From a virus (Duplodnaviria; Heunggongvirae; Uroviricota; Caudoviricetes), in IMG/VR virus record IMGVR_UViG_2675903330_000002: a stretch of DNA of 34,322 bases. One strand, 5' to 3'. Under the pieces are notes generated by a model, which saw only the letters and a program-made list of their open reading frames with translations, was not told the origin of the DNA and made no database searches. A program made the translations under genes and the position numbers. Positions 2,584 to 32,468 of this stretch are shown in pieces; positions within the stretch are counted from its first letter, which is position 1, and every line of letters begins with the position of its first letter.

Positions 2584-3080
2584 CAGTGATGACGCTCAAT
2601 CTCGTTGAAAAACAGCCAGCAGCTATGCGCCGGATAATTGGTAAGCATCTTGCCGTTCCTCGCTGGCAGGATACATGTGATTATTATAATCAGATGATGG
2701 AGCGCGAACGGCTAACAGTTTGCTTTCATGCGCAGTTAAAACAGCGTCACGCAACGATGCGTTTTGAAGAAATGAACGACGTCGAACGTGAACGACTGGT
2801 ATGTGCAATTGATGAATTGCGTGGGGCATTCTCAAAACGCCGTCAGGTTGGCGCAAGTGAGTATGCATATATTAGTTTTTTAACAGTCAGTCAGCGTCGT
2901 ACTTTATTTATGCATGCCGGATTGACTGAAAAAGAATTCAACCAGCCATACTGGCGAATTAATGAAGAGTCATGTTACTGGCGTGATGCTTTATTCCGTG
3001 CATTACGTGAATTATTCAGTCTGTTTGAGTATGCACCGACAATTCTGACGTCGGTAAAACCAGAGCAATATCTGCATTAA
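2580..3080 (+). CDS. B: replication protein B-like (166 aa)
   Basis: ORF in the P2 B position. Start taken as the second ATG (2580) to match the expected size; the ATG at 2574 is also possible. Confidence 0.65.
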   Translation: MTVMTLNLVEKQPAAMRRIIGKHLAVPRWQDTCDYYNQMMERERLTVCFHAQLKQRHATMRFEEMNDVERERLVCAIDELRGAFSKRRQVGASEYAYISFLTVSQRRTLFMHAGLTEKEFNQPYWRINEESCYWRDALFRALRELFSLFEYAPTILTSVKPEQYLH

Positions 3081-3143
3081 GTAATTAACCAGAGTTTTTA
3101 ACGCACTTAATCGTGCGGGGCTTCTTTTTGCCTGGAGAAAGTC

Positions 3144-3368
3144 ATGCATACAGTTTCTGAAAATCAGTGCGGTAAATACGCATTACTGCTGCAACAGGCC
3201 AGAACCGAAGCACAGGCCGACGCTGCGACGCGCTTTTCTTCTCATCTTGACGCCATGATTCGCCACATAACAAAGGCGGAGTTATCCCGCGTGGAGATAG
3301 TCGAGCTGCTCAGTCAGGAGTCGGAAAAATTTCACAATATCGGATTGTCTCGCGGGGAGGTGCTTTGA
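3144..3368 (+). CDS. P2 orf80-like hypothetical protein (74 aa)
   Basis: ATG preceded by GGAGAAAG. Part of a tightly packed early operon. Confidence 0.6.
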
Positions 3369-3667
3369 TGTCCTGTTCTCATTCAGTTGTATTACTGAAT
3401 AACGCCTTAAAAATCGCCGTTATGGAAAATGGTGATTTGTCTCTTATTCAACTTGGTCTTGATAAAGAAAAACGCGACATAACTGAATCTGTTATCGCGA
3501 TTTATCAGAATGAATTAAACCTCCTGTCTGATGTGGTCAATTTACTTGTTAAACGCGCTGTATTCCACAAGCAAATTTCCTCCGTGGATGAACTGACAAA
3601 ATTAACGACAGAACTTGCCAGTTATTGCGCTGATGTATCCAGGAAACTTAACGATAAAAGGAGCTGA
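3368..3667 (+). CDS. P2 orf81-like hypothetical protein (99 aa)
   Basis: ATG at 3368 overlaps the stop of the preceding ORF (TGATG). The track ORF starts at a TTG three bases upstream. Confidence 0.6.
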   Translation: MSCSHSVVLLNNALKIAVMENGDLSLIQLGLDKEKRDITESVIAIYQNELNLLSDVVNLLVKRAVFHKQISSVDELTKLTTELASYCADVSRKLNDKRS

Positions 3668-3669
3668 TA

Positions 3670-3894
3670 ATGCCGGACAACGTAGATTTTATTCAGGAAC
3701 AACAGACTGAATTACTGGAGCGCCAGATTAACGCGGCAAGGGTAAAACATTGCGGTGCTTCTGCGCTGGTTTGCGAAGAGTGTGACGCGCCAATACCTGC
3801 TGCCCGTCGTGCGGCTTATCCGTCAGCCACGCGTTGTGTTTCCTGTCAGTCAGTCTTTGAAGCAAAAAACAAACATTACCGGAGAACGGCATGA
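3670..3894 (+). CDS. TraR/DksA-family C4 zinc-finger protein (P2 orf82-like), 74 aa
   Basis: CxxC...CxxC pattern (CEECDAPIP...RCVSCQ). AAAAGGAG upstream of the ATG. Confidence 0.7.
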   Translation: MPDNVDFIQEQQTELLERQINAARVKHCGASALVCEECDAPIPAARRAAYPSATRCVSCQSVFEAKNKHYRRTA

Positions 3895-4166
3895 GTATTC
3901 GTATTGAAATTGGCGAACGTTATGTCGTTACCAGTGACAGCTTTCAGTTTATTCTCCACGAGAAAAAGAGAGCGGAAAGCGGTAAAAACGCCGGTCAGGA
4001 ATGGCTGTCGGTGGTTGGTTATTACCCGAAATTAAGCCAGCTCGTTTCCGGCCTGATGCATCACGATATTCTGACCGGAAGCGCAAAGTCTTTTGCTGAT
4101 TTAAACGTGCAGGTTGAGCAACTCAGCAAGCGTTGTTCAGAGGCTTTTGGCTCATATGGCCGTTAA
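3891..4166 (+). CDS. P2 orf83-like hypothetical protein (91 aa)
   Basis: ORF with ATG at 3891 overlapping the upstream stop. Its 3' end overlaps the start of A. Confidence 0.55.
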   Translation: MSIRIEIGERYVVTSDSFQFILHEKKRAESGKNAGQEWLSVVGYYPKLSQLVSGLMHHDILTGSAKSFADLNVQVEQLSKRCSEAFGSYGR

Positions 4167-6432
4167 AGCCTCCGGGCGTTTTGTCCCTCCGTCAGCATTT
4201 GCCGCAGGCACCGGTAAGGCGTTTACCGGTGCTTATGCATGGAACGCGCCACGCGAGGCTGTCGGGCGCGAAAGACCCCTTACACGTGACGAGATGCGTC
4301 AGGTGCAAGGTGTTTTATCCACGATTAACCGCCTGCCTTACTTTTTGCGCTCGCTGTTTACTTCACGCTATGACTACATCCGGCGCAATAAAAGCCCGGT
4401 GCACGGGTTTTATTTTCTCACATCCACTTTTCAGCGTCGTTTATGGCCGCGCATTGAGCGTGTGAATCAGCGCCATGAAATGAACACCGACGCGTCGTTG
4501 CTGTTTCTGGCAGAGCGTGACCATTATGCGCGTCTGCCGGGGATGAATGACAAGGAGCTGAAAAAGTTTGCCGCCCGTATCTCATCGCAGCTTTTCATGA
4601 TGTATGAGGAACTCTGCGATGCCTGGGTGGATGCGCATGGCGAAAAAGAATCGCTGTTTACGGATGAGGCGCAGGCTCACCTCTATGGTCATGTTGCTGG
4701 TGCTGCACGTGCTTTCAATATTTCCCCTCTCTACTGGAAAAAATACCGTAAAGGGCAGATGACCACGAGGCAGGCATATTCTGCCATTGCCCGTCTGTTT
4801 AACGATGAGTGGTGGACCCATCAGCTTAAAGGCCAGCGTATGCGCTGGCATGAGGCGTTACTGATTGCTGTCGGGGAGGTCAATAAAGACCGTTCTCCTT
4901 ATGCCAGTAAACATGCCATTCGTGATGTGCGTGCACGCCGCCAGGCAAATCTGGAATTTCTTAAATCGTGTGATCTCGAAAACAGGGAAACCGGCGAGCG
5001 CATCGACCTTATCAGTAAGGTGATGGGCAGTATTTCTAATCCTGAAATTCGCCGGATGGAGCTGATGAACACCATTGCCGGTATTGAGCGTTACGCCGCA
5101 GCAGAGGGTGATGTGGGGATGTTTATCACGCTGACCGCGCCGTCAAAGTATCACCCGACACGTCAGGTCGGAAAAGGCGAAAGTAAAACCGTCCAGCTTA
5201 ATCACGGCTGGAATGATGAGGCATTTAATCCAAAGGATGCGCAGCGATATCTCTGCCGTATCTGGAGCCTGATGCGCACGGCATTCAAGGATAATGATTT
5301 ACAGGTCTACGGTTTGCGTGTCGTCGAGCCACACCACGACGGAACGCCGCACTGGCATATGATGCTTTTTTGTAATCCACGCCAGCGTAACCAGATTATC
5401 GAAATCATGCGTCGCTACGCGCTCAAAGAGGATGGAGACGAAAGAGGAGCTGCGCGAAACCGTTTTCAGGCAATACACCTTAACCGGGGCGGTGCTGCGG
5501 GATATATCGCGAAATACATTTCAAAAAACATCGACGGCTATGCACTGGATGGTCAGCTCGATAACGATACCGGCAGGCCGCTGAAAGACACTGCCGCGGC
5601 TGTTACCGCATGGGCGTCAACGTGGCGCATTCCGCAATTTAAAACGGTTGGCCTGCCGACAATGGGGGCTTACCGTGAACTACGCAAATTGCCTCGCGGC
5701 GTCAGCATTGCTGATGAGTTTGACGAACGCGTCGAGGCTGCACGCGCTGCCGCAGACAGTGGCGATTTTGCGCTGTATATCAGCGCGCAGGGTGGGGCAA
5801 ATGTCCCGCGCGATTGTCAGACTGTCAGGGTCGCCCGTAGCCCGTCGGATGACGTTAACGAGTACGAGGAAGAGGTCGAGAGAGTGGTCGGCATTTACGC
5901 GCCGCATCTCGGCGCGCGTCATATTCATATCACCAGAACGACGGACTGGCGCATTGTGCCGAAAGTTCCGGTCGTTCAGCCTTTGACTTTAAAAAGCGGC
6001 ATCGCCGCGCCTCGGAGTCCTGTCAATAACTGTGGAAAGCTCACCGGTGGTGATACTTCGTTACCGGCTCCCACACCTTCTGAGCACGCCGCAGCAGTGC
6101 TTAATCTGGTAGATGACGGTGTTATCGAATGGAATGACCAGGAGGTCGTGAGGGCGCTCAGAGGTGCATTAAAACACGGTCTGAGAAGACCAAACCGTCA
6201 GCAAAGAAACGGAAGCCCGTTAAAACCGCATGAAATAGCGCCATCGGCCAGACTGACCCGGTCGGAACGAATGCAAATTACCCGTATCCGCGTTGACCTT
6301 GCTCAGAACGGTATCAGGCCACAGCGATGGGAGCTTGAGGCGCTGGCGCGTGGCGCGACCGTAAATTATGACGGGGAAAAATTCACGTATCCGGTCGCTG
6401 ATGAGTGGCCGGGATTCTCAACAAACATATAA
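4156..6432 (+). CDS. A: replication initiation endonuclease A (rolling-circle, HUH-type)
   Basis: About 758-aa ORF in the P2 gpA position, with an H-x-H metal-binding motif (HWHMMLF) and nearby Tyr residues. The track ORF starts at a TTG at 4114; the first ATG is at 4156. Confidence 0.85.
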   Translation: MAVKASGRFVPPSAFAAGTGKAFTGAYAWNAPREAVGRERPLTRDEMRQVQGVLSTINRLPYFLRSLFTSRYDYIRRNKSPVHGFYFLTSTFQRRLWPRIERVNQRHEMNTDASLLFLAERDHYARLPGMNDKELKKFAARISSQLFMMYEELCDAWVDAHGEKESLFTDEAQAHLYGHVAGAARAFNISPLYWKKYRKGQMTTRQAYSAIARLFNDEWWTHQLKGQRMRWHEALLIAVGEVNKDRSPYASKHAIRDVRARRQANLEFLKSCDLENRETGERIDLISKVMGSISNPEIRRMELMNTIAGIERYAAAEGDVGMFITLTAPSKYHPTRQVGKGESKTVQLNHGWNDEAFNPKDAQRYLCRIWSLMRTAFKDNDLQVYGLRVVEPHHDGTPHWHMMLFCNPRQRNQIIEIMRRYALKEDGDERGAARNRFQAIHLNRGGAAGYIAKYISKNIDGYALDGQLDNDTGRPLKDTAAAVTAWASTWRIPQFKTVGLPTMGAYRELRKLPRGVSIADEFDERVEAARAAADSGDFALYISAQGGANVPRDCQTVRVARSPSDDVNEYEEEVERVVGIYAPHLGARHIHITRTTDWRIVPKVPVVQPLTLKSGIAAPRSPVNNCGKLTGGDTSLPAPTPSEHAAAVLNLVDDGVIEWNDQEVVRALRGALKHGLRRPNRQQRNGSPLKPHEIAPSARLTRSERMQITRIRVDLAQNGIRPQRWELEALARGATVNYDGEKFTYPVADEWPGFSTNI

Positions 6433-6535
6433 AAATGATTGAAATGGTTGATTTTGCTTCCACTTGATGGTTGGTATCAGCAACTGATGGATCATGCGGA
6501 ACTGCGTGGCGATCTTGCTTTGGAAGCATGTCATT

Positions 6536-6754
6536 ATGACTAATGCATACATTACTAGCTATGCGTCCGGTTCCGCCATTGTACTCGTGCAAGAGTCTGC
6601 GGCTGATGGCTATTGTTTACAAATTATGGTCAAAGAGAATCTGACCCTCTACGAGTTGGTCGGAGGGACTGAGATCGTCAGTGATAACTGCAGCCGTATG
6701 GGAGAAATCAATAATCCCAACCGTCCATATTTCTACCTTCACGCGTGCCCATAA
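6536..6754 (+). CDS. hypothetical small protein (orphan ORF between A and the RT gene)
   Basis: ORF only, with no clear Shine-Dalgarno sequence. It occupies the region where P2 has orf91. May be non-coding. Confidence 0.2.
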   Translation: MTNAYITSYASGSAIVLVQESAADGYCLQIMVKENLTLYELVGGTEIVSDNCSRMGEINNPNRPYFYLHACP

Positions 6755-6780
6755 TCTGTCACCACGTTGACCATAGAAAA

Positions 6781-6825
6781 CCCCGTCGACGCTGAAACTC
6801 GCTTTCAGTGCTGGCGGGGGTGAAC
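6781..6825 (-). terminator. possible rho-independent terminator for the minus-strand RT gene
   Basis: CCCCG (6781-6785) pairs with CGGGG (6815-6819), with an inner CTGAAA/TTTCAG stem. On the minus strand the hairpin is followed by TTTTCT. Confidence 0.3.
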
Positions 6826-6919
6826 AACGAGCTTGCGAGGCGTTAGGGATGTCGAAATTTCATATGACTGTTCGCTTTAATGCTTAACGAAGTCATGTTG
6901 AGTTAATAACATTGTTTCG

Positions 6920-8464
6920 TTAAGCGCTGTGTTCCTTGTCGAATAAGTTCACTTCTTCTGGTGTAATATCATTATCCATTTCTTCGAATGCATCTAAATC
7001 CACAATTTTTGTTTTTTTCAAAATTGATAGTATTTTCTGTTTGTTTTTACTTTTGGCTGAGCCCGGAATCCACTCTACATCCCACAGGCCATCAATGGTA
7101 AATGTTTTTTTTCCCTTGAGTTCATCATTTATGCGTTGACATAGGGCTGTTTTGTAATCGCCTTCCCATTGTGTGTGTATCTTCCCTTGAACTCGTTGAA
7201 ACCAAATATCTAACATTTCAGTATTTGGTTGTTTACCTAGTTTACAATGAAGTTGTTGTAACTTGCCAAATTTGAGTTCATCGTCGTCATAAAGGAAGGT
7301 CAAGAGTTTTGCGAAAATAGCCATTCCCACTGGGTAGGTGGTTGGGTTTTTAGCCATGATGCTTGAAATAATTCCAAGCATTGCATCTAGTTGATGCCCA
7401 CTATTTGTGATCTTTTTCTTCCTAAATAATTTTCGCAAGAAATCATTTAAATATCTAACTGTAATTTTGGAGTTTTGATGTTTTAAAGAAAATAAATATA
7501 TTGCATACAACATTTTCTGTAGGGAGTTGAACGACCTTTCTATAATATATTCTTTTTTTGCTGATTTAAGGGAGTGAAGAATGATGTCGTCATGTAGTTC
7601 TGTTTTTCTTGAGTTTAAATCAAGCCCAAACTCACCTAAGACCTCAACCAAACACTTTGAGATTTTGTCCAAATCATCTTTACTGCTTGAAAATATTCGA
7701 TAATCATCTCTGTAGCGAACTACTTTGTAATCCGTTATTTTTTGCTCTTCAGTTTTTTTTCTTAGCTGTAAATCAATTTCGCCTAAAATTAATTCGGCAA
7801 ATGTATCCATCAACGTACTACCCAATGGTATTCCGTTTGTCTGATTACTCATCATCATCTGGATATGAGTGTCAATCAATCGTCCTGGGTTATTGTTATT
7901 TTCTTTCTTTTTGGCCTCTTCTTTTGAGATGAATACCCATTCAAAGCTATGAGTGTAAATAGAAGGGTAGAAGTTTGAAATATCTGTGCTGAACATGAAC
8001 TCATACTCAAGAGCCAATGAAAGACTTTTTTGTTCAAAATCTTCCCACCAGTTTAAAACAGATGCAGCTACGTTTGAGGTGTTCTTTTTGCTCACTGGGG
8101 TACTTGAGCATAAAAAAAGATCATTAGACTCAAACTCTCTAAATTTATTCTTTATAGCCTTCCAGTTGGAAGGGGATGTAATAAGTTTACAAAAATACAC
8201 GTAGTACAGAGGATTAATTAGTGTTATTCGTCGCCAGCTATATAAGCCATCTTTGCTGACTAAAACCTCGTAATTTATATTCTTCCCCATCAATGACTTG
8301 GAGTCAGGTTGGAAGTTGATTTTACCTTCATCTATCGCGGAGTTGATTTCTTCAAGCAAGGAAGAAAAATCGACATAACTGGGTAGCTCCAGAGTAGTGT
8401 ATGAATCATGCTGCAGAAAATACTTAAGCGCTCTACCAGTAGTTAATTCATAAATCTTTTTCAT
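6920..8464 (-). CDS. Abi-type reverse transcriptase (AbiA/AbiK/Abi-P2-like), 515 aa, in the P2 tin/old slot
   Basis: RT palm motifs readable in the translation: RRITLINP (motif 1), FSTDISNFYPSIY (motif A), NGIPLGSTLMDTFAEL (motif B), VRYRDDYRIF (YxDD, motif C), GLDLNSRKTEL (motif D/E). An extra C-terminal domain of about 175 aa follows. Start taken at MKKIYEL (8464); the track's longer form starts at 8590. The gene is AT-rich relative to the phage backbone. Confidence 0.75.
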   Translation of the reverse strand: MKKIYELTTGRALKYFLQHDSYTTLELPSYVDFSSLLEEINSAIDEGKINFQPDSKSLMGKNINYEVLVSKDGLYSWRRITLINPLYYVYFCKLITSPSNWKAIKNKFREFESNDLFLCSSTPVSKKNTSNVAASVLNWWEDFEQKSLSLALEYEFMFSTDISNFYPSIYTHSFEWVFISKEEAKKKENNNNPGRLIDTHIQMMMSNQTNGIPLGSTLMDTFAELILGEIDLQLRKKTEEQKITDYKVVRYRDDYRIFSSSKDDLDKISKCLVEVLGEFGLDLNSRKTELHDDIILHSLKSAKKEYIIERSFNSLQKMLYAIYLFSLKHQNSKITVRYLNDFLRKLFRKKKITNSGHQLDAMLGIISSIMAKNPTTYPVGMAIFAKLLTFLYDDDELKFGKLQQLHCKLGKQPNTEMLDIWFQRVQGKIHTQWEGDYKTALCQRINDELKGKKTFTIDGLWDVEWIPGSAKSKNKQKILSILKKTKIVDLDAFEEMDNDITPEEVNLFDKEHSA

Positions 8465-8670
8465 AATTAGTGATTTCTTCTTAAGTTGCGCACAAATAAC
8501 TACCTGTTTTCTATCATGATAACGATGCGAATGCGAGCAATTCAGGAAGTGCATTACTCTGCATCGAAGCGCACGCAAGTCAGAGAACAATAACTGCCTG
8601 GCGACATCAGGACTGGCGCGCTAGTTGAGTGGTCATGCAACTGCATTAAAACCGCCCCATGAAGCGGGCG

Positions 8671-8689
8671 GGCGAGGCGGGGGAAGCAC
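8671..8689. other. cos site (19-nt cohesive-end sequence GGCGAGGCGGGGGAAGCAC)
   Basis: Matches the P2/186 cohesive-end sequence as I recall it, with at most one difference. Lies between the A-side genes and Q as in P2, within a GC-rich dyad region. Confidence 0.7.
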
Positions 8690-8859
8690 TGCGCGCTAAA
8701 CGATGTCGCTGGCTTGCAGTTACCCGGTTGAAATTCTTATTTTTTTGTTGCATTATTCTTAGCGCACCAGCGATTCGCTTGGTATGCGGCAGTCAACAAC
8801 ATTAAATTGTCAGTTTTTGCTTTTACAAAAAAGCGTCCACTATGGACCTATCAGCGAGG

Positions 8860-9000
8860 CCCCACCGTCGTCAACTACGATGGTGCCGTAGCCGACGACA
8901 TTACGTACGGTCGAAAGATAGCAGAGGCTGTTGCTGACAATTGTTGATGTAAGCATCTCTGCTGTTCCACCCTTGAGTATGGGAAGACCGTACGTAACTT
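8860..9000 (+). ncRNA. candidate structured non-coding RNA upstream of the retron-type RT (possible msr/msd-like element)
   Basis: Perfect 12-bp inverted repeat TTACGTACGGTC (8901-8912) and GACCGTACGTAA (8986-8997), the latter 17 nt before the RT start codon. A compound hairpin GTCGTC-A-CTACG-loop-CGTAG-CC-GACGAC lies at 8867-8899, and an inner AGCAGAG/CTCTGCT stem at 8920-8963. Boundaries and strand are not established. Confidence 0.3.
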
Positions 9001-9014
9001 TGAATTTGAATGGT

Positions 9015-10205
9015 ATGTTTATGGATAAATTTAAACCATACAGCAAATCCAATGCTCCTATCACAACACTTGAAAAGTTGTCAAAGGCTTTATCGATTTC
9101 TGTTGAAGAGCTTAAAGCTATTGCAGAATTACCATTAGATGAGAAATATACTCTAAAAGAAATTCCCAAAATTGACGGAAGCAAACGGATTGTCTACTCC
9201 CTGCATCCTAAAATGAGATTATTACAGAGTAGAATTAATAAACGTATCTTTAAGGAATTGGTTGTTTTTCCTTCATTTTTGTTTGGTTCAGTTCCCAGTA
9301 AAAATGATGTTTTAAATTCTAATGTCAAACGTGACTATGTTTCATGTGCAAAGGCTCATTGTGGAGCAAAAACAGTTCTCAAGGTGGATATAAGTAATTT
9401 TTTCGATAATATCCATAGAGATCTGGTTAGGAGCGTGTTTGAGGAGATATTGCATATTAAGGATGAGGCTCTTGAATACTTGGTGGATATATGTACTAAG
9501 GATGATTTTGTCGTACAGGGGGCCTTAACATCAAGCTATATAGCAACTTTGTGTTTATTCGCTGTTGAAGGGGATGTGGTAAGACGTGCGCAGAGGAAAG
9601 GACTTGTTTATACGCGTTTGGTAGATGATATTACCGTGTCATCTAAAATAAGTAATTATGATTTTTCTCAAATGCAAAGCCATATAGAGAGGATGCTTTC
9701 TGAGCATGACTTGCCGATAAATAAGCGCAAAACTAAAATATTTCACTGTTCATCTGAACCTATAAAAGTACATGGTTTAAGAGTTGACTATGACTCACCT
9801 CGACTACCATCCGATGAAGTCAAAAGAATCAGGGCATCTATACATAATTTGAAATTACTGGCGGCAAAAAATAACACAAAAACAAGTGTTGCATACAGAA
9901 AAGAATTCAATAGATGTATGGGGAGAGTGAATAAGCTTGGCCGTGTTGCGCATGAAAAATATGAATCATTCAAGAAACAGTTGCAGGCAATAAAACCGAT
10001 GCCATCTAAAAGAGATGTTGCTGTGATTGATGCAGCTATAAAAAGTTTAGAGTTGTCGTATTCGAAAGGTAATCAAAATAAACATTGGTATAAAAGAAAA
10101 TATGATTTGACGAGATATAAGATGATTATTCTTACTCGCTCTGAATCATTTAAAGAAAAACTGGAGTGTTTTAAATCTAGATTGGCATCTTTAAAACCAT
10201 TATGA
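9015..10205 (+). CDS. retron-type reverse transcriptase (about 396 aa)
   Basis: Motifs align in order with retron RTs such as Ec86 (from memory): SKALSISVEEL (N-terminal), RIVYSLHP (motif 1), AKAHCGA (NAxxH-like), KVDISNFFDNI (motif A), VVQGALTSSYIATL (motif B), YTRLVDDITVS (motif C), INKRKTKI, KVHGLRV (VTG-like, Thr replaced by His), IRASIHNL. Start taken at the first ATG (9015); the track ORF begins at a TTG at 8931. Confidence 0.75.
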   Translation: MFMDKFKPYSKSNAPITTLEKLSKALSISVEELKAIAELPLDEKYTLKEIPKIDGSKRIVYSLHPKMRLLQSRINKRIFKELVVFPSFLFGSVPSKNDVLNSNVKRDYVSCAKAHCGAKTVLKVDISNFFDNIHRDLVRSVFEEILHIKDEALEYLVDICTKDDFVVQGALTSSYIATLCLFAVEGDVVRRAQRKGLVYTRLVDDITVSSKISNYDFSQMQSHIERMLSEHDLPINKRKTKIFHCSSEPIKVHGLRVDYDSPRLPSDEVKRIRASIHNLKLLAAKNNTKTSVAYRKEFNRCMGRVNKLGRVAHEKYESFKKQLQAIKPMPSKRDVAVIDAAIKSLELSYSKGNQNKHWYKRKYDLTRYKMIILTRSESFKEKLECFKSRLASLKPL

Positions 10206-10909
10206 ATGCAAATATTAGACTTCTCAAATATATTGTCGGTGTGTCGTCAGCTCTTTTTTTGATTTTTTCGCTAATTTCTCTTTTTGAAACTATTCAGAAT
10301 GAAAAGCTATATGAGCGTGATATATGCTTCGATAGCCAGTGCTTAAAATTTTTTGCGGAAAAAACATCTGGTATAGTAATGTATTTTCAGGCGTTTGGAT
10401 GGCTTATAACAACTTTTGTTACCGTTTTTGGTGTTATGATTGCTTTGATGACATATAACGCTGGAGTTAAAAATAATAATAATAGTAATTACACTAGTCA
10501 TCTGACGATGTTTAGAGAATTTGCAAGTGCTGAGTTAACTAAAAGAAGTAGCATCTATCCAGAGAAAGTTAATTTTTTTAGATGGTATAGGGTTATGTTC
10601 CCTGAAGCGCAAGGCGGTGATATATCTGTTTCGAGAGATTATCTAGAAATAATATCTAGAATCAAATGTGTTATTGAGGAAGCCAATGCACATATTACAG
10701 AGGAAAATAAAGACTATAAATATAAAACTCATCAGAGAAAAATGATGGCTGTTTTGGATGAAATCGGTATATCGATTAGTAATGGGCCCAAAAATATTTT
10801 TATTGAGGTTGAGAGTCAAATTTTGGATTATATCGATACTATTAATTTGTCATTTTGTCACTCCTCATCAGTGATAGAATTAAGTAGAGTAAAAAGGAAG
10901 TATATATAG
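10202..10909 (+). CDS. two-transmembrane-helix protein, putative retron effector (235 aa)
   Basis: ATGA overlap with the RT stop indicates translational coupling. Two hydrophobic helices (LLKYIVGVSSALFLIFSLISLF and GIVMYFQAFGWLITTFVTVFGVMIALMTY) precede a soluble domain of about 150 aa with no motif I recognise. Confidence 0.65.
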   Translation: MNANIRLLKYIVGVSSALFLIFSLISLFETIQNEKLYERDICFDSQCLKFFAEKTSGIVMYFQAFGWLITTFVTVFGVMIALMTYNAGVKNNNNSNYTSHLTMFREFASAELTKRSSIYPEKVNFFRWYRVMFPEAQGGDISVSRDYLEIISRIKCVIEEANAHITEENKDYKYKTHQRKMMAVLDEIGISISNGPKNIFIEVESQILDYIDTINLSFCHSSSVIELSRVKRKYI

Positions 10910-10911
10910 TT

Positions 10912-10940
10912 AAGTTGGCGGGATTGCATTCCGCCAACTT
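10912..10940. terminator. hairpin terminator between convergent effector gene and Q
   Basis: 10-bp perfect stem AAGTTGGCGG/CCGCCAACTT with a 9-nt loop, followed by TTATATATTTA. Lies in the 42-bp gap between two convergent stop codons. Confidence 0.5.
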
Positions 10941-10951
10941 TATATATTTAC

Positions 10952-11971
10952 TTATAAGTTATAATCAAGGAATTTTATGACTTCCATATCTAACCATTCA
11001 TTTATTGACTTTATTCTCTCCTGTAATGGAATGAGTTCATTGCGGACAAAGACCTTTGCCACTTTTTCAATATCTCCTAGTGACCCGACATTCTCCGGCT
11101 TACCGCCCATCAACTGAAAGGGGATGCGGTGTGCGTCCAGGAGATCTGCGGCGCTGACTTTTTTGATATTAAAAAAATCGTCCTTCGTCGCCACTTCACT
11201 GAGGGGGATAATTTTAATGCCGTCGGCTTTCCCCTGTGGGGCATAGAGAAACAGGTTTTTAAAGTTGTTGCGGCCTTTCGACTTAACCATGTTTTCGCGA
11301 AGCATTTCGATATCGTTGCGATCCTGCACGGCATCGGTGACATACATGATGTATCCGGCATGAGCGCCGTTTTCGTAATACTTGCGGCGGAACAGCGTGG
11401 CCGACTCATTCAGCCAGGCAGAGTTAAGGGCGCTGAGATATTCCGGCAGGCCGTACAGCTCCTGATTGATATCCGGCTCCAGCAGGTGAAACACGGAGCC
11501 GGGCGCGAAGGCTGTCGGCTCGTTGAAGGACGGCACCCACCAGTAAACATCCTCCTCCACGCCACGGCGGGTATATTTTGCCGGTGAGGTTTCCAGTCTG
11601 ATGACCTTACCGGTGGTGCTGTAACGCTTTTCCAGAAACGCATTACCGAACACCAGAAAATCCAGCACAAAGCGGCTGAAATCCTGCTGGGACAGCCACG
11701 GGTGCGGGATAAACGTTGAAGCCAGAATATTGCGTTTAACGTAAATCGGTGAGCTGTGATGCACGGCAGCACGCAGGCTTTTTGCCAGACCGGTAAAGCT
11801 GACCGGTGGCTCATACCATCTGCCGTTACTGATGCACTCGACGTAATCCAGAATATCACGGCGGTCGAGTACCGGCACCGGCTCACCAAAGGTGAATGCC
11901 TCCATTTTCGGGGCGCTGGCAGTCATTGTTTTCACCGCTGGCTGCGGTGTTTTCCCTTTTTTCTTACTCAT
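10952..11971 (-). CDS. Q: portal protein (gpQ-like), 339 aa
   Basis: Position and size as P2 Q. Start overlaps the stop of P (ATGA). Confidence 0.85.
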   Translation of the reverse strand: MSKKKGKTPQPAVKTMTASAPKMEAFTFGEPVPVLDRRDILDYVECISNGRWYEPPVSFTGLAKSLRAAVHHSSPIYVKRNILASTFIPHPWLSQQDFSRFVLDFLVFGNAFLEKRYSTTGKVIRLETSPAKYTRRGVEEDVYWWVPSFNEPTAFAPGSVFHLLEPDINQELYGLPEYLSALNSAWLNESATLFRRKYYENGAHAGYIMYVTDAVQDRNDIEMLRENMVKSKGRNNFKNLFLYAPQGKADGIKIIPLSEVATKDDFFNIKKVSAADLLDAHRIPFQLMGGKPENVGSLGDIEKVAKVFVRNELIPLQERIKSINEWLDMEVIKFLDYNL

Positions 11972-22076: not shown

Positions 22077-22680
22077 TTCGCGCCTGCTGCCGACCGGCTC
22101 ATCACTGCTTGAAGTCGCCGCCGCAAAAGCCTGTGCGGAAATTGAAAAAACGCCGGTCAGTATTCGTGAGCTGTGGAACCCGGATACCTGTCCGGCAAAT
22201 CTGCTGCCGTGGCTGGCGTGGTCATTTTCTGTTGACCGCTGGGATGATAAGTGGCCGGAAGCGACAAAACGCGCTGTTATCCGCGATGCGTATTTCATTC
22301 ACTGCCATAAGGGCACTATAGGCGCAATCCGGCGTGTGGTGGAGCCGCTCGGCTATCTGATTGAGGTGAGGGAGTGGTGGCAACTCAACGAGGAGCCGGG
22401 GACGTTCCGTATCGTTGTTGGCGTGCTTGAGCAGGGTATTACCGAGGAAATGTATCAGGAGCTGGAGCGCCTCGTTGCTGATGCAAAACCGGCAAGCCGC
22501 CATCTGACGGGACTGGCTATCAGTTTAAGTACAACCGGCAACATTTTTGCCGGTGCGGGATGCTATCACGGTGACGCCCTGACGGTTTATCCCTACACCC
22601 CGGAGGCCATTATTGTCGGAGGGGATTATTTCCCGGCCTCGGCCATTCATTTAATTGATAACCTGAGAGTAAACGCATGA
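22069..22680 (+). CDS. I: baseplate/tail protein I-like, 203 aa
   Basis: Synteny, immediately upstream of the tail-fibre gene. Confidence 0.75.
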   Translation: MSDSRLLPTGSSLLEVAAAKACAEIEKTPVSIRELWNPDTCPANLLPWLAWSFSVDRWDDKWPEATKRAVIRDAYFIHCHKGTIGAIRRVVEPLGYLIEVREWWQLNEEPGTFRIVVGVLEQGITEEMYQELERLVADAKPASRHLTGLAISLSTTGNIFAGAGCYHGDALTVYPYTPEAIIVGGDYFPASAIHLIDNLRVNA

Positions 22681-23894
22681 CAGTGAAATACTACGCCATT
22701 CTGACTAATCAGGGCGCGGCACGGCTGGCTAACGCGACGATGCTCGGCAGTAAGCTGAATCTGACGCAAATGGCCGTTGGTGATGCAAATGGTGTCTTGC
22801 CGACACCAGACCCGGCACAGACAAAACTGATTAACCAGAAACGCATCGCGCCGCTGAATCTTCTGAGTGTTGACCCGAACAACCAGAGCCAGATTATTGC
22901 GGAGCAAATCATCCCTGAGAACGAGGGCGGATTCTGGATCCGTGAGATTGGGCTTTATGATGATGAAGGCGTACTCATTGCGGTGGCGAACTGCCCGGAA
23001 ACGTACAAACCGCAGTTACAGGAAGGCAGTGGTCGTACCCAGACTATCCGCATGATTCTGGTTGTCACGAATACCGAAGCTATCACGCTGAAAATCGATC
23101 CGTCGGTGGTACTGGCGACCCGTAAATACGTGGATGATGAAGTCCTGGAATTAAAGCTGTATGTGGATGACCAGATGAGAAACCACATTGCCGCACAGGA
23201 TCCTCATACCCAGTATGCGCAGAAACATAATCCGACATTTACCGGAGAACCAAAAGCGCCGACGCCTGCCGCAGGAAATAACACCACGCGGATTGCGACC
23301 ACTGAGTTTGTTCAGGCCGCTATTACCGCTCTGATTAACGGTGCGCCAGCCACGCTGGACACACTGAAAGAAATTGCCGCAGCCATTAACAATGACCCGA
23401 AATTCAGTACCACCATTAACAATGCGCTGTCAGGTAAGCAGCCACTGGATGAGACGCTGACTCATTTGAGTGGAAAGGATGTTGCCGGTCTTCTCGCATA
23501 CCTTGGTTTGGGAGAAGCGGCAACGAGGAACGTCGGAACGGATACCGGGCAAGTACCAGATATGAGTAGTTTTACAACGGGGCACTCTGGAGCAGCAGAC
23601 TGGCCGAATCCTAAATCTGGATGGAGTAAGGGGCCGGATGGGGTAATTACACAATGGGGTATTTTCGGTTTCCCCGTTGGACAGACAGGGACGAATGTTG
23701 TTTTCCCGCTACCTTTCCCCGCGCGGGTCGAATCAATTACACTGACAATGGCAGATATACAGGAGTCTCTGCTTTCTCCAGCAACCATGCCTGCTTATGG
23801 AGTTAACTCAACTGGTACTTCAAGAACGGGTTTTACAGCCCGTATGTCAGGCGCCGGTGGGTTTAATCTTTGCTATATAGCGAAAGGGAGATAA
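22677..23894 (+). CDS. H: tail fibre protein (H-like), constant N-terminal part plus invertible C-terminal cassette, 405 aa
   Basis: N-terminus MTVKYYAILTNQGAARLANA is typical of P2/Mu-type tail fibres. A crossover site lies inside the gene at 23491-23516, about codon 272. Confidence 0.85.
   Translation: MTVKYYAILTNQGAARLANATMLGSKLNLTQMAVGDANGVLPTPDPAQTKLINQKRIAPLNLLSVDPNNQSQIIAEQIIPENEGGFWIREIGLYDDEGVLIAVANCPETYKPQLQEGSGRTQTIRMILVVTNTEAITLKIDPSVVLATRKYVDDEVLELKLYVDDQMRNHIAAQDPHTQYAQKHNPTFTGEPKAPTPAAGNNTTRIATTEFVQAAITALINGAPATLDTLKEIAAAINNDPKFSTTINNALSGKQPLDETLTHLSGKDVAGLLAYLGLGEAATRNVGTDTGQVPDMSSFTTGHSGAADWPNPKSGWSKGPDGVITQWGIFGFPVGQTGTNVVFPLPFPARVESITLTMADIQESLLSPATMPAYGVNSTGTSRTGFTARMSGAGGFNLCYIAKGR
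23491..23516. repeat. left crossover site for DNA invertase (hix/gix-like, 26 bp)
   Basis: TTCTCGCATACC-TT-GGTTTGGGAGAA is in inverted orientation to the site at 25351-25376 and shares the half-site TTCTCCCAAACC. Confidence 0.75.
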
Positions 23895-23898
23895 CAGA

Positions 23899-24342
23899 AT
23901 GAATAAAGTTAAAAGTGTTTACAGCCCGTCCGAAAATGCAATCTACAACGCAGCGCTATATGAAAGTTATATCAAGGAGGGGACATGGCCGCAGGATGGT
24001 ATTGAAATCAGCGATGAGGATGCTGTCAGATTTAATGGGGGAAATAAGCCAACAGGAAAAATGCTGGGAATGGTTTCAGGGACCCTTGCATGGGTTGATG
24101 AGCCGCCGCTTTCACCAGAACAGAAAATATCAGATGCAGAAAACATGAAAGCCACATTTCGTGCAAAAGCTGACAGTGAAATATCCTGGCGTCAGGATGC
24201 TGTTGATGCTGGTATCGCAACTGATGAAGAAACTTCAACTCTCACCCAATGGAAGAAATACCGTGTGCTGCTGATGCGTGTTGATACGTCAACAGCACCC
24301 GATATTGAATGGCCTACGCCTCCGGCAGCTCAGGCCAGATGA
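23899..24342 (+). CDS. tail fibre assembly protein (G/U-like), ON orientation, 147 aa
   Basis: Follows the tail fibre gene. Its C-terminus (...VDTSTAPDIEWPTPP) resembles that of the convergent paralogue. Confidence 0.75.
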   Translation: MNKVKSVYSPSENAIYNAALYESYIKEGTWPQDGIEISDEDAVRFNGGNKPTGKMLGMVSGTLAWVDEPPLSPEQKISDAENMKATFRAKADSEISWRQDAVDAGIATDEETSTLTQWKKYRVLLMRVDTSTAPDIEWPTPPAAQAR

Positions 24343-24907
24343 CATCCGGCGCGGTGCTGGTATCTGTTACCGTCACCGCGTCAATGTAATCCAGCACGGC
24401 GTTAAGTCGGGTTGTTTCTGCCTGCGTCAGCTTCCGTCCGGCCTGTAATTTCAGTTGAATCAGACTGATGGAAGCCATTGCAGCATCAATCAGCGACTGG
24501 CGCTGTGCTTCTGCTGCGTCTACTGCGGCACTATGCTGTGCCTCAGTATCTGTCACCCATTTCTCACCATCCCATTTATCGTATGGCGTTAACGGTGAAA
24601 GCGTGACATAACCGTCTTTGATGGCACCGATATAATCCACTGTAACAGCTGCGCCATTTTCGATTGAGTAAACAGTCTCATTGCGGTGGTCTTCTTCATG
24701 GCTCCATCCCTTACCCGTAAATACTGCCACTTTCCCCGGAATGTATTCGCCCGGGTCAATACCAGTGGAACAGGCGGGCATACTTACGCCAGTATTAATA
24801 TATTCATCAGACCAGCCCGTATACTCAGATGTTTCAGCATCATAATAAAAACAACGCATATCGCCCGGCACTGTAGCCAGCCCATTTTCATCAAAAACAG
24901 GTTTCAT
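24314..24907 (-). CDS. alternative tail fibre assembly protein (U'-like), OFF orientation, 197 aa
   Basis: Convergent with and overlapping the previous gene at 24314-24342. C-terminal motif ...TDTSTAPDVIWPELP. Confidence 0.7.
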   Translation of the reverse strand: MKPVFDENGLATVPGDMRCFYYDAETSEYTGWSDEYINTGVSMPACSTGIDPGEYIPGKVAVFTGKGWSHEEDHRNETVYSIENGAAVTVDYIGAIKDGYVTLSPLTPYDKWDGEKWVTDTEAQHSAAVDAAEAQRQSLIDAAMASISLIQLKLQAGRKLTQAETTRLNAVLDYIDAVTVTDTSTAPDVIWPELPEA

Positions 24908-25404
24908 TATTTAGCCCTCACCAGAAAGTTAAATGCAATATTTCGCGGTCTGACAGCAACAAAATTCACACCATCACCCACAGAGTTACTGGTGAAATTA
25001 AATCGTGAAAATCCTGGCTGATTTCCGGCGATGCCATCATGAAAGTTAATTGCGTGTCCCGCACCTTCGCCTATATTCCCGGCAAACTGAGAAAAGTTTG
25101 TAGCTGCCTGCCAGCTTAATAATTCGCGACCACCGTCTGCACCTCGCCCGTCATCCCAGATACGAATGAAATCACCGCGGGCTTCAGGTAATACCAGCGA
25201 AGGAAATACTTTCGCCAGCACAGGATAATCAGTGGCAGAGAATTTCGCGCCGCTGAACTTCAAAAACACCATACTGGACCAGCTGTCGATTACAGTATTT
25301 GGCATTGCAGCGGACGGCCAGAAGAACGGAACGCCAATAGCTGGAGCACCTTCTCCCAAACCAACGTTTATGAAAATGCAGAGATAATGGCTAACTGGCA
25401 TCAT
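24907..25404 (-). CDS. alternative tail-fibre C-terminal cassette (H'v), promoterless in this orientation
   Basis: The ORF's 5' end runs through the right crossover site and encodes ...NVGLGEGAP, matching the LGLGE junction in H. It has no independent start context. A functional product is expected only after inversion. Confidence 0.6.
   Translation of the reverse strand: MMPVSHYLCIFINVGLGEGAPAIGVPFFWPSAAMPNTVIDSWSSMVFLKFSGAKFSATDYPVLAKVFPSLVLPEARGDFIRIWDDGRGADGGRELLSWQAATNFSQFAGNIGEGAGHAINFHDGIAGNQPGFSRFNFTSNSVGDGVNFVAVRPRNIAFNFLVRAK
25351..25376. repeat. right crossover site for DNA invertase (hix/gix-like, 26 bp)
   Basis: TTCTCCCAAACC-AA-CGTTTATGAAAA lies immediately upstream of the invertase gene and resembles Hin/Gin/Cin crossover sites. 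Confidence 0.75.
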
Positions 25405-25431
25405 CCCCGGTTTTTATTCAGGGGGTTGATC

Positions 25432-26025
25432 ATGCTTATTGGCTATGTACGCGTGTCAACAAATGACCAGAACACCGATTTGCAACGTAGTGCGCTGAAC
25501 TGCGCGGGATGTGAGCGGATTTTTGAGGATAAAATCAGCGGCACTAAGTCCGACAGACCGGGGCTGAAAAAACTGCTCAGGACACTATCGGCAGGAGACA
25601 CGCTGGTAGTCTGGAAGCTGGACAGGCTGGGGCGTAGTATGCGGCATCTGGTCATTCTGGTTGAGGAGCTGCGCGAACGCGGCGTTAATTTTCGCAGCCT
25701 GACAGATGCTATTGATACCAGCACGCCGATGGGGCGTTTTTTCTTTCATGTGATGGGTGCCCTGGCTGAAATGGAGCGAGAACTCATTGTCGAGCGGACA
25801 CGCGCCGGACTGGAAGCGGCCAGAGCCAAAGGGCGTATTGGTGGCAGACGTCCGAAGCTCACCGCGAGTGAGTGGGAACAGGCAGGACGGTTGCTGGCTG
25901 CGGGTGAATCACGTCAACGCGTGGCGCTGATTTTTGATATTGGCCTGTCCACGCTCTATAAAAAATTCCCCTCATCAGCGGCAAAGAATAAATTGTGTCA
26001 TCCCTTAGCCAACCGGGACAAATAG
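25432..26025 (+). CDS. serine recombinase, Gin/Hin/Cin/Pin-family DNA invertase (about 197 aa)
   Basis: N-terminus MLIGYVRVSTNDQNTDLQR contains the catalytic Ser of the resolvase/invertase fold. C-terminal HTH ...GESRQRVALIFDIGLSTLYKKFP. ATG at 25432 preceded by AGGGGG. Occupies the slot where P2 has Z/fun. Confidence 0.9.
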   Translation: MLIGYVRVSTNDQNTDLQRSALNCAGCERIFEDKISGTKSDRPGLKKLLRTLSAGDTLVVWKLDRLGRSMRHLVILVEELRERGVNFRSLTDAIDTSTPMGRFFFHVMGALAEMERELIVERTRAGLEAARAKGRIGGRRPKLTASEWEQAGRLLAAGESRQRVALIFDIGLSTLYKKFPSSAAKNKLCHPLANRDK

Positions 26026-26084
26026 CCTGACATCTCCGGCACAACTGAAAATAACACTCACCCATTAACCACGGAGTTAAACGG

Positions 26085-27275
26085 ATGAGTGACTATCATC
26101 ACGGCGTGCAGGTGCTGGAGATTAACGACGGCACCCGCGTCATTTCCACCGTATCCACCGCCATTGTTGGCATGGTCTGCACGGCCAGCGATGCGGATGC
26201 GGAAACCTTCCCCGTCAATAAACCGGTGCTGATCACCAATGTGCAGAGCGCGATTGCAAAGGCCGGTAAAAAAGGCACGCTGGCGGCATCGTTGCAGGCC
26301 ATCGCTGACCAGTCAAAACCGGTCACCGTTGTCGTGCGCGTGGAAGACGGAACCGGCGACGACGAAGAAACGAAACTCGCGCAGACCGTTTCCAATATCA
26401 TCGGCACCACTGACGAAAACGGTCAGTACACCGGACTGAAAGCCCTGCTGGCGGCGGAGTCGGTAACCGGTGTTAAACCGCGTATTCTTGGTGTGCCGGG
26501 ACTGGACACCAAAGAGGTGGCGGTTGCACTGGCATCCGTCTGTCAGAAGCTGCGCGCTTTCGGGTATATCAGCGCATGGGGCTGTAAAACCATTTCCGAG
26601 GTGAAAGCCTACCGCCAGAATTTCAGCCAGCGTGAGCTGATGGTCATCTGGCCGGATTTCCTCGCATGGGATACGGTCACCAGTACCACCGCCACCGCGT
26701 ATGCCACCGCCCGTGCGCTGGGTCTGCGTGCCAAAATCGACCAGGAGCAGGGCTGGCATAAAACGCTGTCCAACGTCGGGGTGAACGGTGTTACCGGCAT
26801 CAGCGCATCTGTATTCTGGGATTTGCAGGAGTCCGGCACCGATGCTGACCTGCTTAACGAGTCAGGCGTCACAACGCTGATTCGCCGTGACGGTTTCCGC
26901 TTCTGGGGTAACCGTACCTGCTCTGATGACCCGCTGTTCCTCTTTGAAAACTACACCCGCACCGCGCAGGTGCTGGCCGACACGATGGCTGAGGCGCATA
27001 TGTGGGCGGTGGACAAGCCTATCACCGCAACGCTGATTCGCGACATCGTTGACGGCATCAATGCCAAATTCCGTGAGCTGAAAACAAACGGCTATATCGT
27101 GGATGCGACCTGCTGGTTCAGCGAAGAATCCAACGATGCGGAAACCCTTAAGGCCGGAAAACTGTATATCGACTACGACTATACCCCGGTGCCTCCTCTT
27201 GAAAACCTGACCCTGCGCCAGCGTATTACCGATAAATACCTGGCAAATCTGGTCACCTCGGTTAACAGCAATTAA
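26085..27275 (+). CDS. FI: tail sheath protein (FI-like), 396 aa
   Basis: Synteny and size. Confidence 0.85.
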   Translation: MSDYHHGVQVLEINDGTRVISTVSTAIVGMVCTASDADAETFPVNKPVLITNVQSAIAKAGKKGTLAASLQAIADQSKPVTVVVRVEDGTGDDEETKLAQTVSNIIGTTDENGQYTGLKALLAAESVTGVKPRILGVPGLDTKEVAVALASVCQKLRAFGYISAWGCKTISEVKAYRQNFSQRELMVIWPDFLAWDTVTSTTATAYATARALGLRAKIDQEQGWHKTLSNVGVNGVTGISASVFWDLQESGTDADLLNESGVTTLIRRDGFRFWGNRTCSDDPLFLFENYTRTAQVLADTMAEAHMWAVDKPITATLIRDIVDGINAKFRELKTNGYIVDATCWFSEESNDAETLKAGKLYIDYDYTPVPPLENLTLRQRITDKYLANLVTSVNSN

Positions 27276-27287
27276 GGAGCCTGACCG

Positions 27288-27806: not shown

Positions 27807-27862
27807 TTTTCATCCGGTCAGCCTGGCTGACCGGTTAACCCCGATTCAGAAGTGAGAAAACC

Positions 27863-28138
27863 ATGAACAAAGAAAACGTCATTACCCTGGACAATCCGGT
27901 CAAACGTGGTGAGCAGGTTATCGAACAGGTCACGCTGATGAAACCCAATGCCGGGACGCTGCGCGGTGTCAGTCTGGCTGCAGTCGCGAACTCCGAAGTC
28001 GATGCACTGATTAAAGTGCTGCCGCGCATGACGGCACCGATGCTGACCGAGCAGGAAGTCGCCGCGCTGGAACTGCCTGACCTTGTGGCGCTGGCCGGTA
28101 AGGTGGTCGGTTTTTTGTCGCCGAACTCGGTGCAGTGA
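27863..28138 (+). CDS. E: tail assembly chaperone E, 91 aa
   Basis: Small ORF between FII and T that ends just after a T-run slippery sequence. Confidence 0.8.
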   Translation: MNKENVITLDNPVKRGEQVIEQVTLMKPNAGTLRGVSLAAVANSEVDALIKVLPRMTAPMLTEQEVAALELPDLVALAGKVVGFLSPNSVQ

Positions 28139-30730: not shown

Positions 30731-30744
30731 GGAGGTGACGAAAA

Positions 30745-32387: not shown

Positions 32388-32468
32388 TGTCTTTTGTTTA
32401 TCTGTTTGTTTTATAAGGATAAATTAACTAAAATGGCACTATCAACAAAACCGGAAGAGGTGCTCGCG

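Follow-up and report, generated by a model that had tools for sequence, protein, structure and literature searches.

The window, the whole 34,322-nucleotide stretch of DNA analyzed here, carries a reverse transcriptase (RT) gene on its minus strand at 6920..8464, between gene A, which ends at 6432, and the phage cos site. This gene is a well-preserved version of Abi-P2, a known and structurally solved phage-defence enzyme of E. coli P2-like prophages. The following features were identified in the region:

6424..8641, no strand: variable TO (tin/old) slot between gene A and cosR, seen as a gap in P2 homology
6494..6754, plus strand: ORF85, a small open reading frame (ORF) on the gene A strand at the position of P2 orf91
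6777..6819, minus strand: candidate intrinsic terminator, an imperfect hairpin followed by UUUU, seen by folding, missed by the pattern scan and with a non-significant segment z-score
6920..8464, minus strand: Abi-P2 gene, P2-EC58 orf544-type allele, 514 codons plus stop (ORF list, PADLOC AbiP2, PDB 7r08)
8465..8641, minus strand: allele-specific 5' leader or promoter region of 177 nt with no homology to P2, 186 or P2-EC30
8671..8689, plus strand: cos 19-nt cohesive end GGCGAGGCGGGGGAAGCAC, read from the sequence and aligned to P2 cosR at the end of the P2 record
8931..10205, plus strand: second RT, of an Ec48-type retron, on the far side of cos (PADLOC RT_IV, E = 1e-176)
8931-10909, RT on the plus strand: retron module, the RT followed by an Ec48-family 2TM effector

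Gene boundaries and genomic slot

The ORF listing gave a minus-strand frame of 6920..8590, which would encode 556 aa from an upstream TTG, and the 2006 annotation of the P2-EC58 homologue begins 30 codons upstream of the ATG at 8464 (544 aa). Both longer ORFs were dropped as the start on the grounds of an unconserved extension and the lengths of homologues. The ATG at 8464, giving 514 residues plus a stop, is the start best supported by sequence comparison, with five lines of evidence: DNA homology with the P2-EC30 allele stops exactly at this ATG, the N-terminal extensions of the GenBank proteins ORF544 and ORF570 are mutually unrelated, full-length homologues are mostly about 514 aa, the 1545-nt gene is the one annotated by RefSeq/PGAP and in the pro147 record, and the crystallised construct begins at the equivalent MKK. 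The 30-codon extension in the P2-EC58 annotation, which is unconserved in the EC30 allele, is probably untranslated. A preliminary description of the locus had the frame right and gave the protein as 515 aa, a figure that counts the stop codon; the protein has 514 aa. A match to Pfam RVT_1 (aa 142-291) scored 41.7 bits against a gathering score of 29.6, which excludes a chance ORF at 6920..8464.

P2 homology in this part of the window is confined to 6301-6423 and 8642-8689, and the corresponding interval of P2 holds orf91, tin and old. Because the P2 backbone stops at 6423 and returns at 8642, the alignment shows that the Abi-P2 gene, which adjoins cos and is oriented like old and tin, stands in place of orf91-tin-old, in agreement with the earlier assignment to the P2 tin/old slot. 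The tin/old interval is a described hotspot (PMC9122126). Location between gene A and cos does not strictly define Abi-P2, since distant members are placed elsewhere. The terminator candidate falls within a 186-like backbone segment (6778-6846), and a pattern scan of the interval from cos to the ATG found no sigma-70-like promoter on the minus strand.

Family placement and closest relatives

All five motifs of the RT palm were found where the preliminary description had put them. The protein is divided as follows:

aa 1 to about 293, 7586..8464, minus strand: RT-like domain of fingers and palm with no thumb (RVT_1; last beta strand of the model at aa 289-291)
Tyr30 codon, 8375..8377, minus strand: predicted protein-priming residue, the equivalent of Tyr61 in 7R08
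aa 78-85, 8210-8233, minus strand: RRITLINP, motif read from the translation
aa 161-169, 7958-7984, minus strand: DISNFYPSI, motif A with catalytic Asp161
aa 211-220, 7805-7834, minus strand: GIPLGSTLMD, motif read from the translation
aa 251-254, 7703-7714, minus strand: YRDD catalytic motif
aa 283-290, 7595-7618, minus strand: LNSRKTEL, motif read from the translation
aa about 294-514, 6923..7585, minus strand: C-terminal all-alpha helical (alpha-solenoid) domain (AlphaFold model, 7R08 superposition)

The PADLOC AbiP2 HMM matched end to end with E = 5e-160 and 531.5 bits, residues 1-512 of the protein aligning to positions 4-487 of the 489-position profile, and PDB 7r08, the Abi-P2 of P2-EC30, matched over aa 1-508 (E = 7e-258). 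Sequence comparison thus establishes membership in the Abi-P2 family. An AlphaFold model of the protein (pLDDT 86.5) contained only helices from aa 294, and its best Foldseek match was 7r08 at full length (TM 0.91/0.96, rmsd 2.0 Å, 508 columns), giving the window protein a predicted 7R08-like fold. The HMM placement and structure prediction proposed in the preliminary description both came out in favour of its reading. The extra C-terminal domain that it had noticed is present and helical, at about 220 aa (aa ~294-514) and not the suggested 175 or so. In 7R08 this domain has 11 helices, sits at the position of the thumb, which Abi-P2 lacks, and lines the DNA channel (PMC9508834).

Membership of another class 1 UG/Abi family (DRT6/UG12, UG14, DRT4/UG15 or AbiK) has a negligible probability. 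The HMMs of these families also matched significantly (Drt6 3e-47; UG14 3e-44; Drt4 4e-43, 146 bits; AbiK 1e-30) and their overall folds are related to that of the window protein; however, AbiP2 scored more than 370 bits above all of them, Drt6 being second best at 159.7 bits, and was the sole model that spanned the C-terminal domain end to end. The TM score to 7R08 was 0.91 compared to at most 0.60 for the rest (DRT6 0.60, DRT4 0.58, AbiK 0.56, AbiA 0.46). NCBIfam Drt4, Drt3b and Drt5 remained far under their cut-offs (Drt4 122 bits against 450), and tests for membership in DRT4 or DRT6 failed. Retron membership failed as well, the best retron match being NCBIfam retron_St85_RT with 34.8 bits against a 235-bit cut-off.

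Conservation of the catalytic and putative priming residues was evident from an alignment of 28 homologues with identities down to 35%, in which Y30, D161 and Y251-R252-D253-D254 were invariant. The arginine in the Y/FxDD motif, conserved in Abi-P2, is a hallmark of the group (PMC2602772), and the YRDD of the window protein, with this hallmark in place, is a further point against the other class 1 families. Tyr30 was invariant inside L27-P28-x-Y30, and Y15 varied. The 7R08 numbering is that of a tagged PDB chain with 31 extra N-terminal residues, so that residue 1 of the query aligns to residue 32 of the chain. In that enzyme a Y61F variant lost DNA polymerisation and a Y46F variant retained it (PMC9508834).

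The closest known relative is orf544 of P2-EC58 (GenBank AM157368, CAJ43157; deposited 2006; Odegrip et al. 2006), which is effectively the same gene. DNA identity is 99.6% over window 6377-8656, 511/514 residues are identical (99.4%; substitutions K105R, G451E and S472N), and the flanks are identical in kind to those of the window, including ORF85 and the cos-proximal end. The P2-EC58 record ends short of cos, so this comparison covers the Abi-P2 side and not the retron side. The second relative is P2-EC30 orf570 (PDB 7R08; Figiel et al. 2022, PMC9508834), with 74.9% identity over the whole length and the same domain order, priming tyrosine, YRDD, genomic slot and orientation. Divergence from P2-EC30 is greatest at the C-terminal end, where the 114 residues from aa 401 to 514 show 66% identity. 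The leader upstream of the EC30 gene is unrelated to that of the window, and the EC30 locus is without ORF85 and the 186-like segment. Both orf570 and orf544 were named Abi-P2 (PMC9508834), and the identities to these type proteins, together with 531 bits for AbiP2 compared to 160 for Drt6, bear out the earlier Abi-type, possibly Abi-P2, reading.

More distant are DRT6 (UG12) and DRT4 (UG15), the second-best HMM and fold matches of the window protein, with about 17-20% identity and TM 0.56-0.60. As in Abi-P2, a single protein combines an RT-like domain with an alpha-helical repeat domain, and both carry out protein-primed, template-independent ssDNA synthesis and defend against T5 (PMC12783706). 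DRT4, however, is a stable hexamer whose priming residue, Tyr125, is in the palm (PMC12783706), whereas that of Abi-P2 is in a fingers loop. AbiK of Lactococcus lactis shares with Abi-P2 an RT-like plus helical architecture with no thumb, Tyr-primed untemplated synthesis and a three-fold oligomer, but its helical domain has no sequence similarity to that of Abi-P2 and 16 helices compared to 11 (PMC9508834). AbiK is also a DNA-stabilised hexamer, plasmid-borne and found in Gram-positive hosts, and its chains gave TM 0.44-0.56 with the window protein.

Stand-alone status and neighbouring genes

Apart from this gene, the ORF listing has no substantial ORF on the minus strand from gene A to cos, in line with the earlier remark that no partner gene lies on the same strand. 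The RT was also the only gene common to four contexts, namely the window, P2-EC30, a Salmonella 186-like prophage and an unrelated E. coli island; comparison of these loci establishes it as a stand-alone gene, as had been claimed. Of 5426 complete E. coli genomes, 64 (about 1.2%) carried the allele intact and at 99% identity or more. The EC58-type is the commoner allele.

Of the neighbouring genes, ORF85 might serve this Abi-P2 allele as a functional partner, either a regulator or an antitoxin, in a two-gene system. ORF85 DNA was found in 64/5426 genomes, equal to the RT allele and with overlapping accession lists, among phage records it occurred only with this allele, and it matched a PHROG of unknown function. 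All copies are, however, at least 99% identical, so that the co-occurrence in E. coli is uninformative and may reflect a single recently spread 2.2-kb haplotype. ORF85 has no PGAP gene call, lies on the gene A strand, exceeds the RT in GC content and is split from it by the 186-like segment. It is missing from the Salmonella locus and from the P2-EC30 locus, where T5 resistance is attributed to orf570, and these absences rule it out as an obligate partner. We consider any partnership quite improbable.

The RT at 8931..10205 belongs to a retron that is independent of the Abi-P2 gene. Its effector is of the Ec48 family (NCBIfam 226.7 bits against a cut-off of 65), and inverted repeats alone gave no confident assignment of the a1/a2 boundaries. 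About 470 nt separate the two RT genes, which are on opposite strands of one low-GC stretch, and both are present in 42 of the 64 allele-bearing E. coli genomes, an arrangement that could suggest halves of a DRT3-like (UG3+UG8) two-RT system. That hypothesis has next to no probability and was ruled out by the identity of the neighbour as a type IV retron RT with an Ec48-family effector, by the HMM scores, by the phage cos between the genes and by their independent occurrence. Drt3b reached only 109.5-133.3 bits in PADLOC, compared to 531 for AbiP2, and 117.4 bits against a cut-off of 350 in NCBIfam; Drt3a gave 32.1 bits against 200, and DRT3 membership failed. The retron is missing in about a third of the allele-bearing genomes, for example H57, and the P2-EC30 and Salmonella loci carry Abi-P2 without it. 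The cos separates the Abi-P2 and retron modules, and the locus is a tidy case of two independent RT-based defence modules on either side of a phage cos.

An RNA partner was also considered, in which the enzyme would be a templated RT copying an unrecognised nearby ncRNA as DRT2, DRT9 or retrons do. The related defence RTs DRT2, DRT9 and DRT3 use ncRNAs, and the allele-specific 177-nt leader at 8465-8641 is unexplained. Folding of this leader, however, detected no significant RNA structure (z = +0.74), and Rfam gave no match in 6300-11100 at E <= 1, in a scan that also missed the retron msr/msd. No flanking RNA is conserved, as the EC30 and EC58 alleles are homologous only in the ORF and in 36 nt of its 3' flank, and the homologue polymerises without added nucleic acid and has no thumb for holding a duplex (PMC9508834). 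A templated enzyme is accordingly very improbable. We conclude with high confidence that the window protein is Abi-P2, a stand-alone class 1 UG/Abi RT-like DNA polymerase, and that its gene occupies the tin/old slot of a P2-like prophage as a lysogenic-conversion (phage-exclusion) gene.

Proposed mechanism and significance

All experiments on the enzyme (T5 exclusion, in vitro synthesis, Y61F and the trimer) were performed on the 75%-identical EC30 allele, and no experiment on the exact EC58-type allele was found in the literature. orf570 of P2-EC30 is reported to confer resistance to T5 (Odegrip et al. 2006, as cited in PMC9508834, PMC9226505 and PMC2602772). The preliminary description had mentioned T5 exclusion by an RT in this slot of P2-like coliphages, which agrees with the finding reported for EC30 orf570 and concerns that allele, not the one in the window. 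Its statement that Abi RTs synthesise untemplated DNA by protein priming agrees with the template-independent, protein-primed synthesis shown in vitro for Abi-P2, using the EC30 enzyme (PMC9508834). The purified EC30 enzyme had no bound DNA, and its in vitro products fell into only two classes, one near 40 nt and the other >100 nt (PMC9508834).

By analogy with the EC30 enzyme, template-independent protein-primed synthesis, trimerisation and T5 exclusion may be expected of the window allele. The protein would consist of fingers and palm with no thumb, the place of the thumb and of the template strand being taken by the alpha-solenoid of about 220 aa, and would assemble into trimers, possibly dimers of trimers. 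DNA synthesis would begin on the Tyr30 hydroxyl of Abi-P2 itself and proceed as untemplated extension of ssDNA by the D161 / YRDD (D253, D254) active site, requiring neither an RNA partner nor a second protein. In a lysogen this activity would exclude superinfecting phages, which for the EC30 allele include T5.

For the step from synthesis to defence we tentatively prefer, as a guess that may well prove wrong, the model described for DRT4/DRT6, two families that also act against T5 and come nearest to the window protein in HMM score as well as in fold. In such a step (PMC12783706), ssDNA would be made constitutively and cleared by the host exonuclease I (SbcB), until a phage ssDNA-binding protein shields it and toxic ssDNA accumulates, aborting the infection. 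A point against it is that the purified EC30 enzyme was DNA-free and made only the two product classes in vitro, so that constitutive synthesis in vivo would be an assumption for Abi-P2. Phage specificity could differ from that of EC30, as the two proteins diverge most in their C-terminal third. It is unlikely that the EC58-type allele is functionally non-equivalent to the EC30 enzyme, with the divergent C-terminus and unrelated leader and/or the strictly co-inherited ORF85 giving it another phage range or control, and with its pairing with the retron (42/64) being complementary or cooperative instead of a chance linkage.

Earlier publications cover the gene and its family name, its location in P2-like phages, and the crystal structure and biochemistry of a 75%-identical homologue, and PADLOC and DefenseFinder already detect Abi-P2. 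The locus therefore carries little weight as a discovery and its value is practical: the EC58-type allele could be used to address how untemplated synthesis leads to phage exclusion, including the model involving SbcB and a phage ssDNA-binding protein.

The prophage and its tin/old slot

The window is a P2-like prophage. Its identity to Escherichia phage pro147 is 98.2% in 2413-22505 and 96.8% in 25993-32776, and two segments differ. The left end (1-2412; integrase and immunity side) gave no megablast match to pro147, unlike the remainder of the early region, so this prophage is a mosaic relative of pro147 and not pro147 itself. No tRNA genes were found in the window. Across the slot 6433-10951, identity reached 99.9% with pro147 and 100% with an E. 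coli chromosome.

Features of the slot and of the pro147-divergent segment
ending at 6432: gene A (replication nickase)
6494-6754, plus strand: ORF85, 86 aa, phrog_13272 of unknown function
6920-8464, minus strand: Abi-P2 reverse transcriptase (RT)
8671-8689: 19-nt cohesive end GGCGAGGCGGGGGAAGCAC, aligning to the P2 cosR feature
8931-10205, plus strand: retron RT, type IV (PADLOC RT_IV, E=1e-176), start probably 9015 as in the pro147 annotation
10202-10909, plus strand: 2TM effector, Ec48 family, overlapping the retron RT (NCBIfam retron_Ec48_2TM, 226.7 bits vs cut-off 65)
from 10952, minus strand: portal gene Q and terminase gene P
22677-23894: tail-fibre gene
24314-24907, strand opposite to the preceding gene: second tail-fibre assembly gene (Caudo_TAP), with a 165-aa ORF
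25387-26025: serine recombinase (Resolvase and HTH_7), after the 165-aa ORF

Homology to the P2 backbone breaks off at 6423 and picks up again at 8642. P2's own interval there consists of orf91, tin and old, and the RT gene therefore occupies the tin/old slot, as the preliminary description had proposed, and it shares the orientation of old and tin, which read leftward in P2 and start about 150 nt from cosR. The Abi-P2 gene region has a GC content of 34-36% vs 52-60% in the phage backbone. The A-to-Q region around cos is a P2 defence hotspot (PMC9122126) and AbiP2 is among the systems listed for P2-like phages (PMC13586616). A GC-rich hairpin with a T-run (CCGCCCGCTTCATGGGGCGG TTTT; 8652-8671, minus strand) abuts the cos end and would block leftward transcription into the Abi-P2 gene. 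The pro147-divergent segment (22506-25992, chiefly 24314-26025) resembles an invertible host-range cassette of the Gin/Cin/Hin type, located on the Z/fun side of the phage.

Identity of the reverse transcriptase

The minus-strand ORF extends from 8590 (TTG) to 6920 and encodes 514 residues plus a stop codon from the ATG at 8464, which is the best-supported start among the candidates. DNA homology to the P2-EC30 allele (6884-8464), which begins 36 nt beyond the stop codon, ends exactly at this ATG; the N-terminal extensions of ORF544 and ORF570 in the 2006 GenBank annotations are mutually unrelated; full-length homologues are mostly about 514 aa; and RefSeq annotates a 1545-nt gene. The protein is thus 514 aa rather than the 515 aa first given, and all five RT motifs quoted with that length are found in it. 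Residues 142-291 matched Pfam RVT_1 above the gathering threshold.

RT motifs of the Abi-P2 protein (minus strand)
8210-8233: RRITLINP, aa 78-85
7958-7984: DISNFYPSI, aa 161-169
7805-7834: GIPLGSTLMD, aa 211-220
7703-7714: YRDD, aa 251-254
7595-7618: LNSRKTEL, aa 283-290

HMM placement put AbiP2 first, with residues 1-512 aligned to positions 4-487 of the 489-position PADLOC profile (E=5e-160, 531.5 bits), ahead of Drt6 (160 bits), UG14 (150), Drt4 (146), Drt3b (133) and AbiK (105). NCBIfam holds no Abi-P2 model, and its Drt4, Drt3b and Drt5 models scored far under their cut-offs. The top PDB sequence match (E=7e-258, query 1-508 vs chain 32-540) was 7r08, the Abi-P2 of phage P2-EC30 (PMC9508834). 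An AlphaFold model built from a 28-sequence alignment (pLDDT 86.5, pTM 0.88) also had 7r08 as its first Foldseek match (TM 0.91/0.96, rmsd 2.0 Å), with DRT6 (TM 0.60), DRT4 (0.58), AbiK (0.56) and AbiA (0.46) far below. From about residue 294 onward the predicted structure consists of alpha helices only, giving a C-terminal helical domain of about 220 aa rather than the roughly 175 aa of the preliminary description. The original observation is thus confirmed, and its interpretation as an Abi-type RT is supported with small corrections.

Identity to orf570 of P2-EC30 was 74.9% overall (aa 1-100, 71%; 101-300, 83%; 301-400, 73%; 401-514, 66%), and identity to orf544 of P2-EC58 was 99.4% (three substitutions), with the P2-EC58 record matching window 6377-8656 at 99.6%. 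Both are named Abi-P2 genes in PMC9508834. The gene is therefore already known: its sequence was deposited in 2006, it has been given a name, and its homologue has provided the structural characterisation.

Neighbouring genes and other genomic contexts

No further substantial minus-strand ORF was found from gene A to cos, in line with the reported lack of a same-strand partner. ORF85 follows gene A at the position of P2 orf91 and had no Pfam match. Its DNA was present in 64 complete E. coli genomes, exactly the count obtained for the Abi-P2 allele; in phage records it was seen only together with that EC58-type allele. ORF85 was rejected as an obligate partner because all copies represent one haplotype (at least 99% identical), RefSeq/PGAP does not annotate it as a gene, and the Abi-P2 loci of P2-EC30 and of the Salmonella prophage lack it.

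On the far side of cos from the Abi-P2 gene, between cos and portal gene Q, lies a complete-looking type IV (Ec48/Eco6-family) retron (8790-10909). Upstream of its RT is a strongly structured stretch (8790-9014; z=-4.84), with inverted repeats at 8901-8912/8986-8997 and 8805-8813/8934-8942; no Rfam match to an msr/msd was obtained. A 13-bp palindromic terminator (10912-10940, plus strand) separates the effector from gene Q. The Abi-P2 allele was found at 99% identity or more in 64 of 5426 complete E. coli genomes, 42 of which carried the whole Abi-P2 and retron arrangement; others matched only up to cos, indicating that the two modules are independent. Many complete E. coli chromosome records (e.g., NZ_CP110511, NZ_CP060946, NZ_CP091839) have the RT at exactly 2765-4309, meaning that they begin at the P2 gene A start codon (window 4156). 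This coincidence is presumably not biology but an assembly-rotation artefact, the prophage replication gene having been mistaken for the replicon start by a start-fixing tool.

In P2-EC30 the RT lies immediately after gene A. In a Salmonella 186-like prophage an 82%-identical RT has the portal/cos side on one flank and orf97-like, DinI/tum and gene A on the other. A 37%-identical E. coli relative (5001-6545 of its own record) lies in an integrase/AlpA/DUF6387 island, so the Abi-P2 family is not limited to P2-like phages. A small H-NS N-terminal-domain protein is encoded directly upstream of this relative and may merit a look. The RT is the only gene common to the four contexts compared, and no Rfam family or significant leader structure indicative of an RNA template was found at the Abi-P2 gene.

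Predicted priming, DNA synthesis and phage exclusion

The 7r08 chain has 31 additional N-terminal residues compared to the window protein, so the published Tyr46 and Tyr61 correspond to its Tyr15 and Tyr30, which are both present. In the P2-EC30 enzyme DNA polymerisation was lost in Y61F and retained in Y46F (PMC9508834). Across 28 aligned homologues (identity down to 35%) L27, P28 and Y30 were invariant, as were D161 and Y251-R252-D253-D254, and Y15 was not; the arginine of Y/FxDD is a peculiarity of the Abi-P2 group (PMC2602772). By homology, the protein would form trimers or dimers of trimers, prime synthesis on Tyr30 and carry out untemplated ssDNA extension in a channel lying between its RT-like and helical lobes, the helical domain standing in for thumb and template strand.

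The preliminary description mentioned an RT gene of P2-like phages that excluded T5. This holds for orf570 of P2-EC30, to which PMC9508834, PMC9226505 and PMC2602772 attribute T5 resistance, citing Odegrip et al. 2006; the phenotype was thus reported for that 75%-identical allele rather than for the window allele, and our literature search found no data on the EC58-type allele. The best analogy for how Abi-P2 DNA synthesis leads to exclusion is offered by DRT4/DRT6, where the model has random ssDNA synthesised constitutively and cleared by host SbcB until the T5 DNA-binding protein ORF55 shields it, toxic ssDNA builds up and abortive infection follows (PMC12783706). By this analogy, an SbcB/ssDNA mechanism of the same type may apply to Abi-P2, which we consider possible rather than probable.
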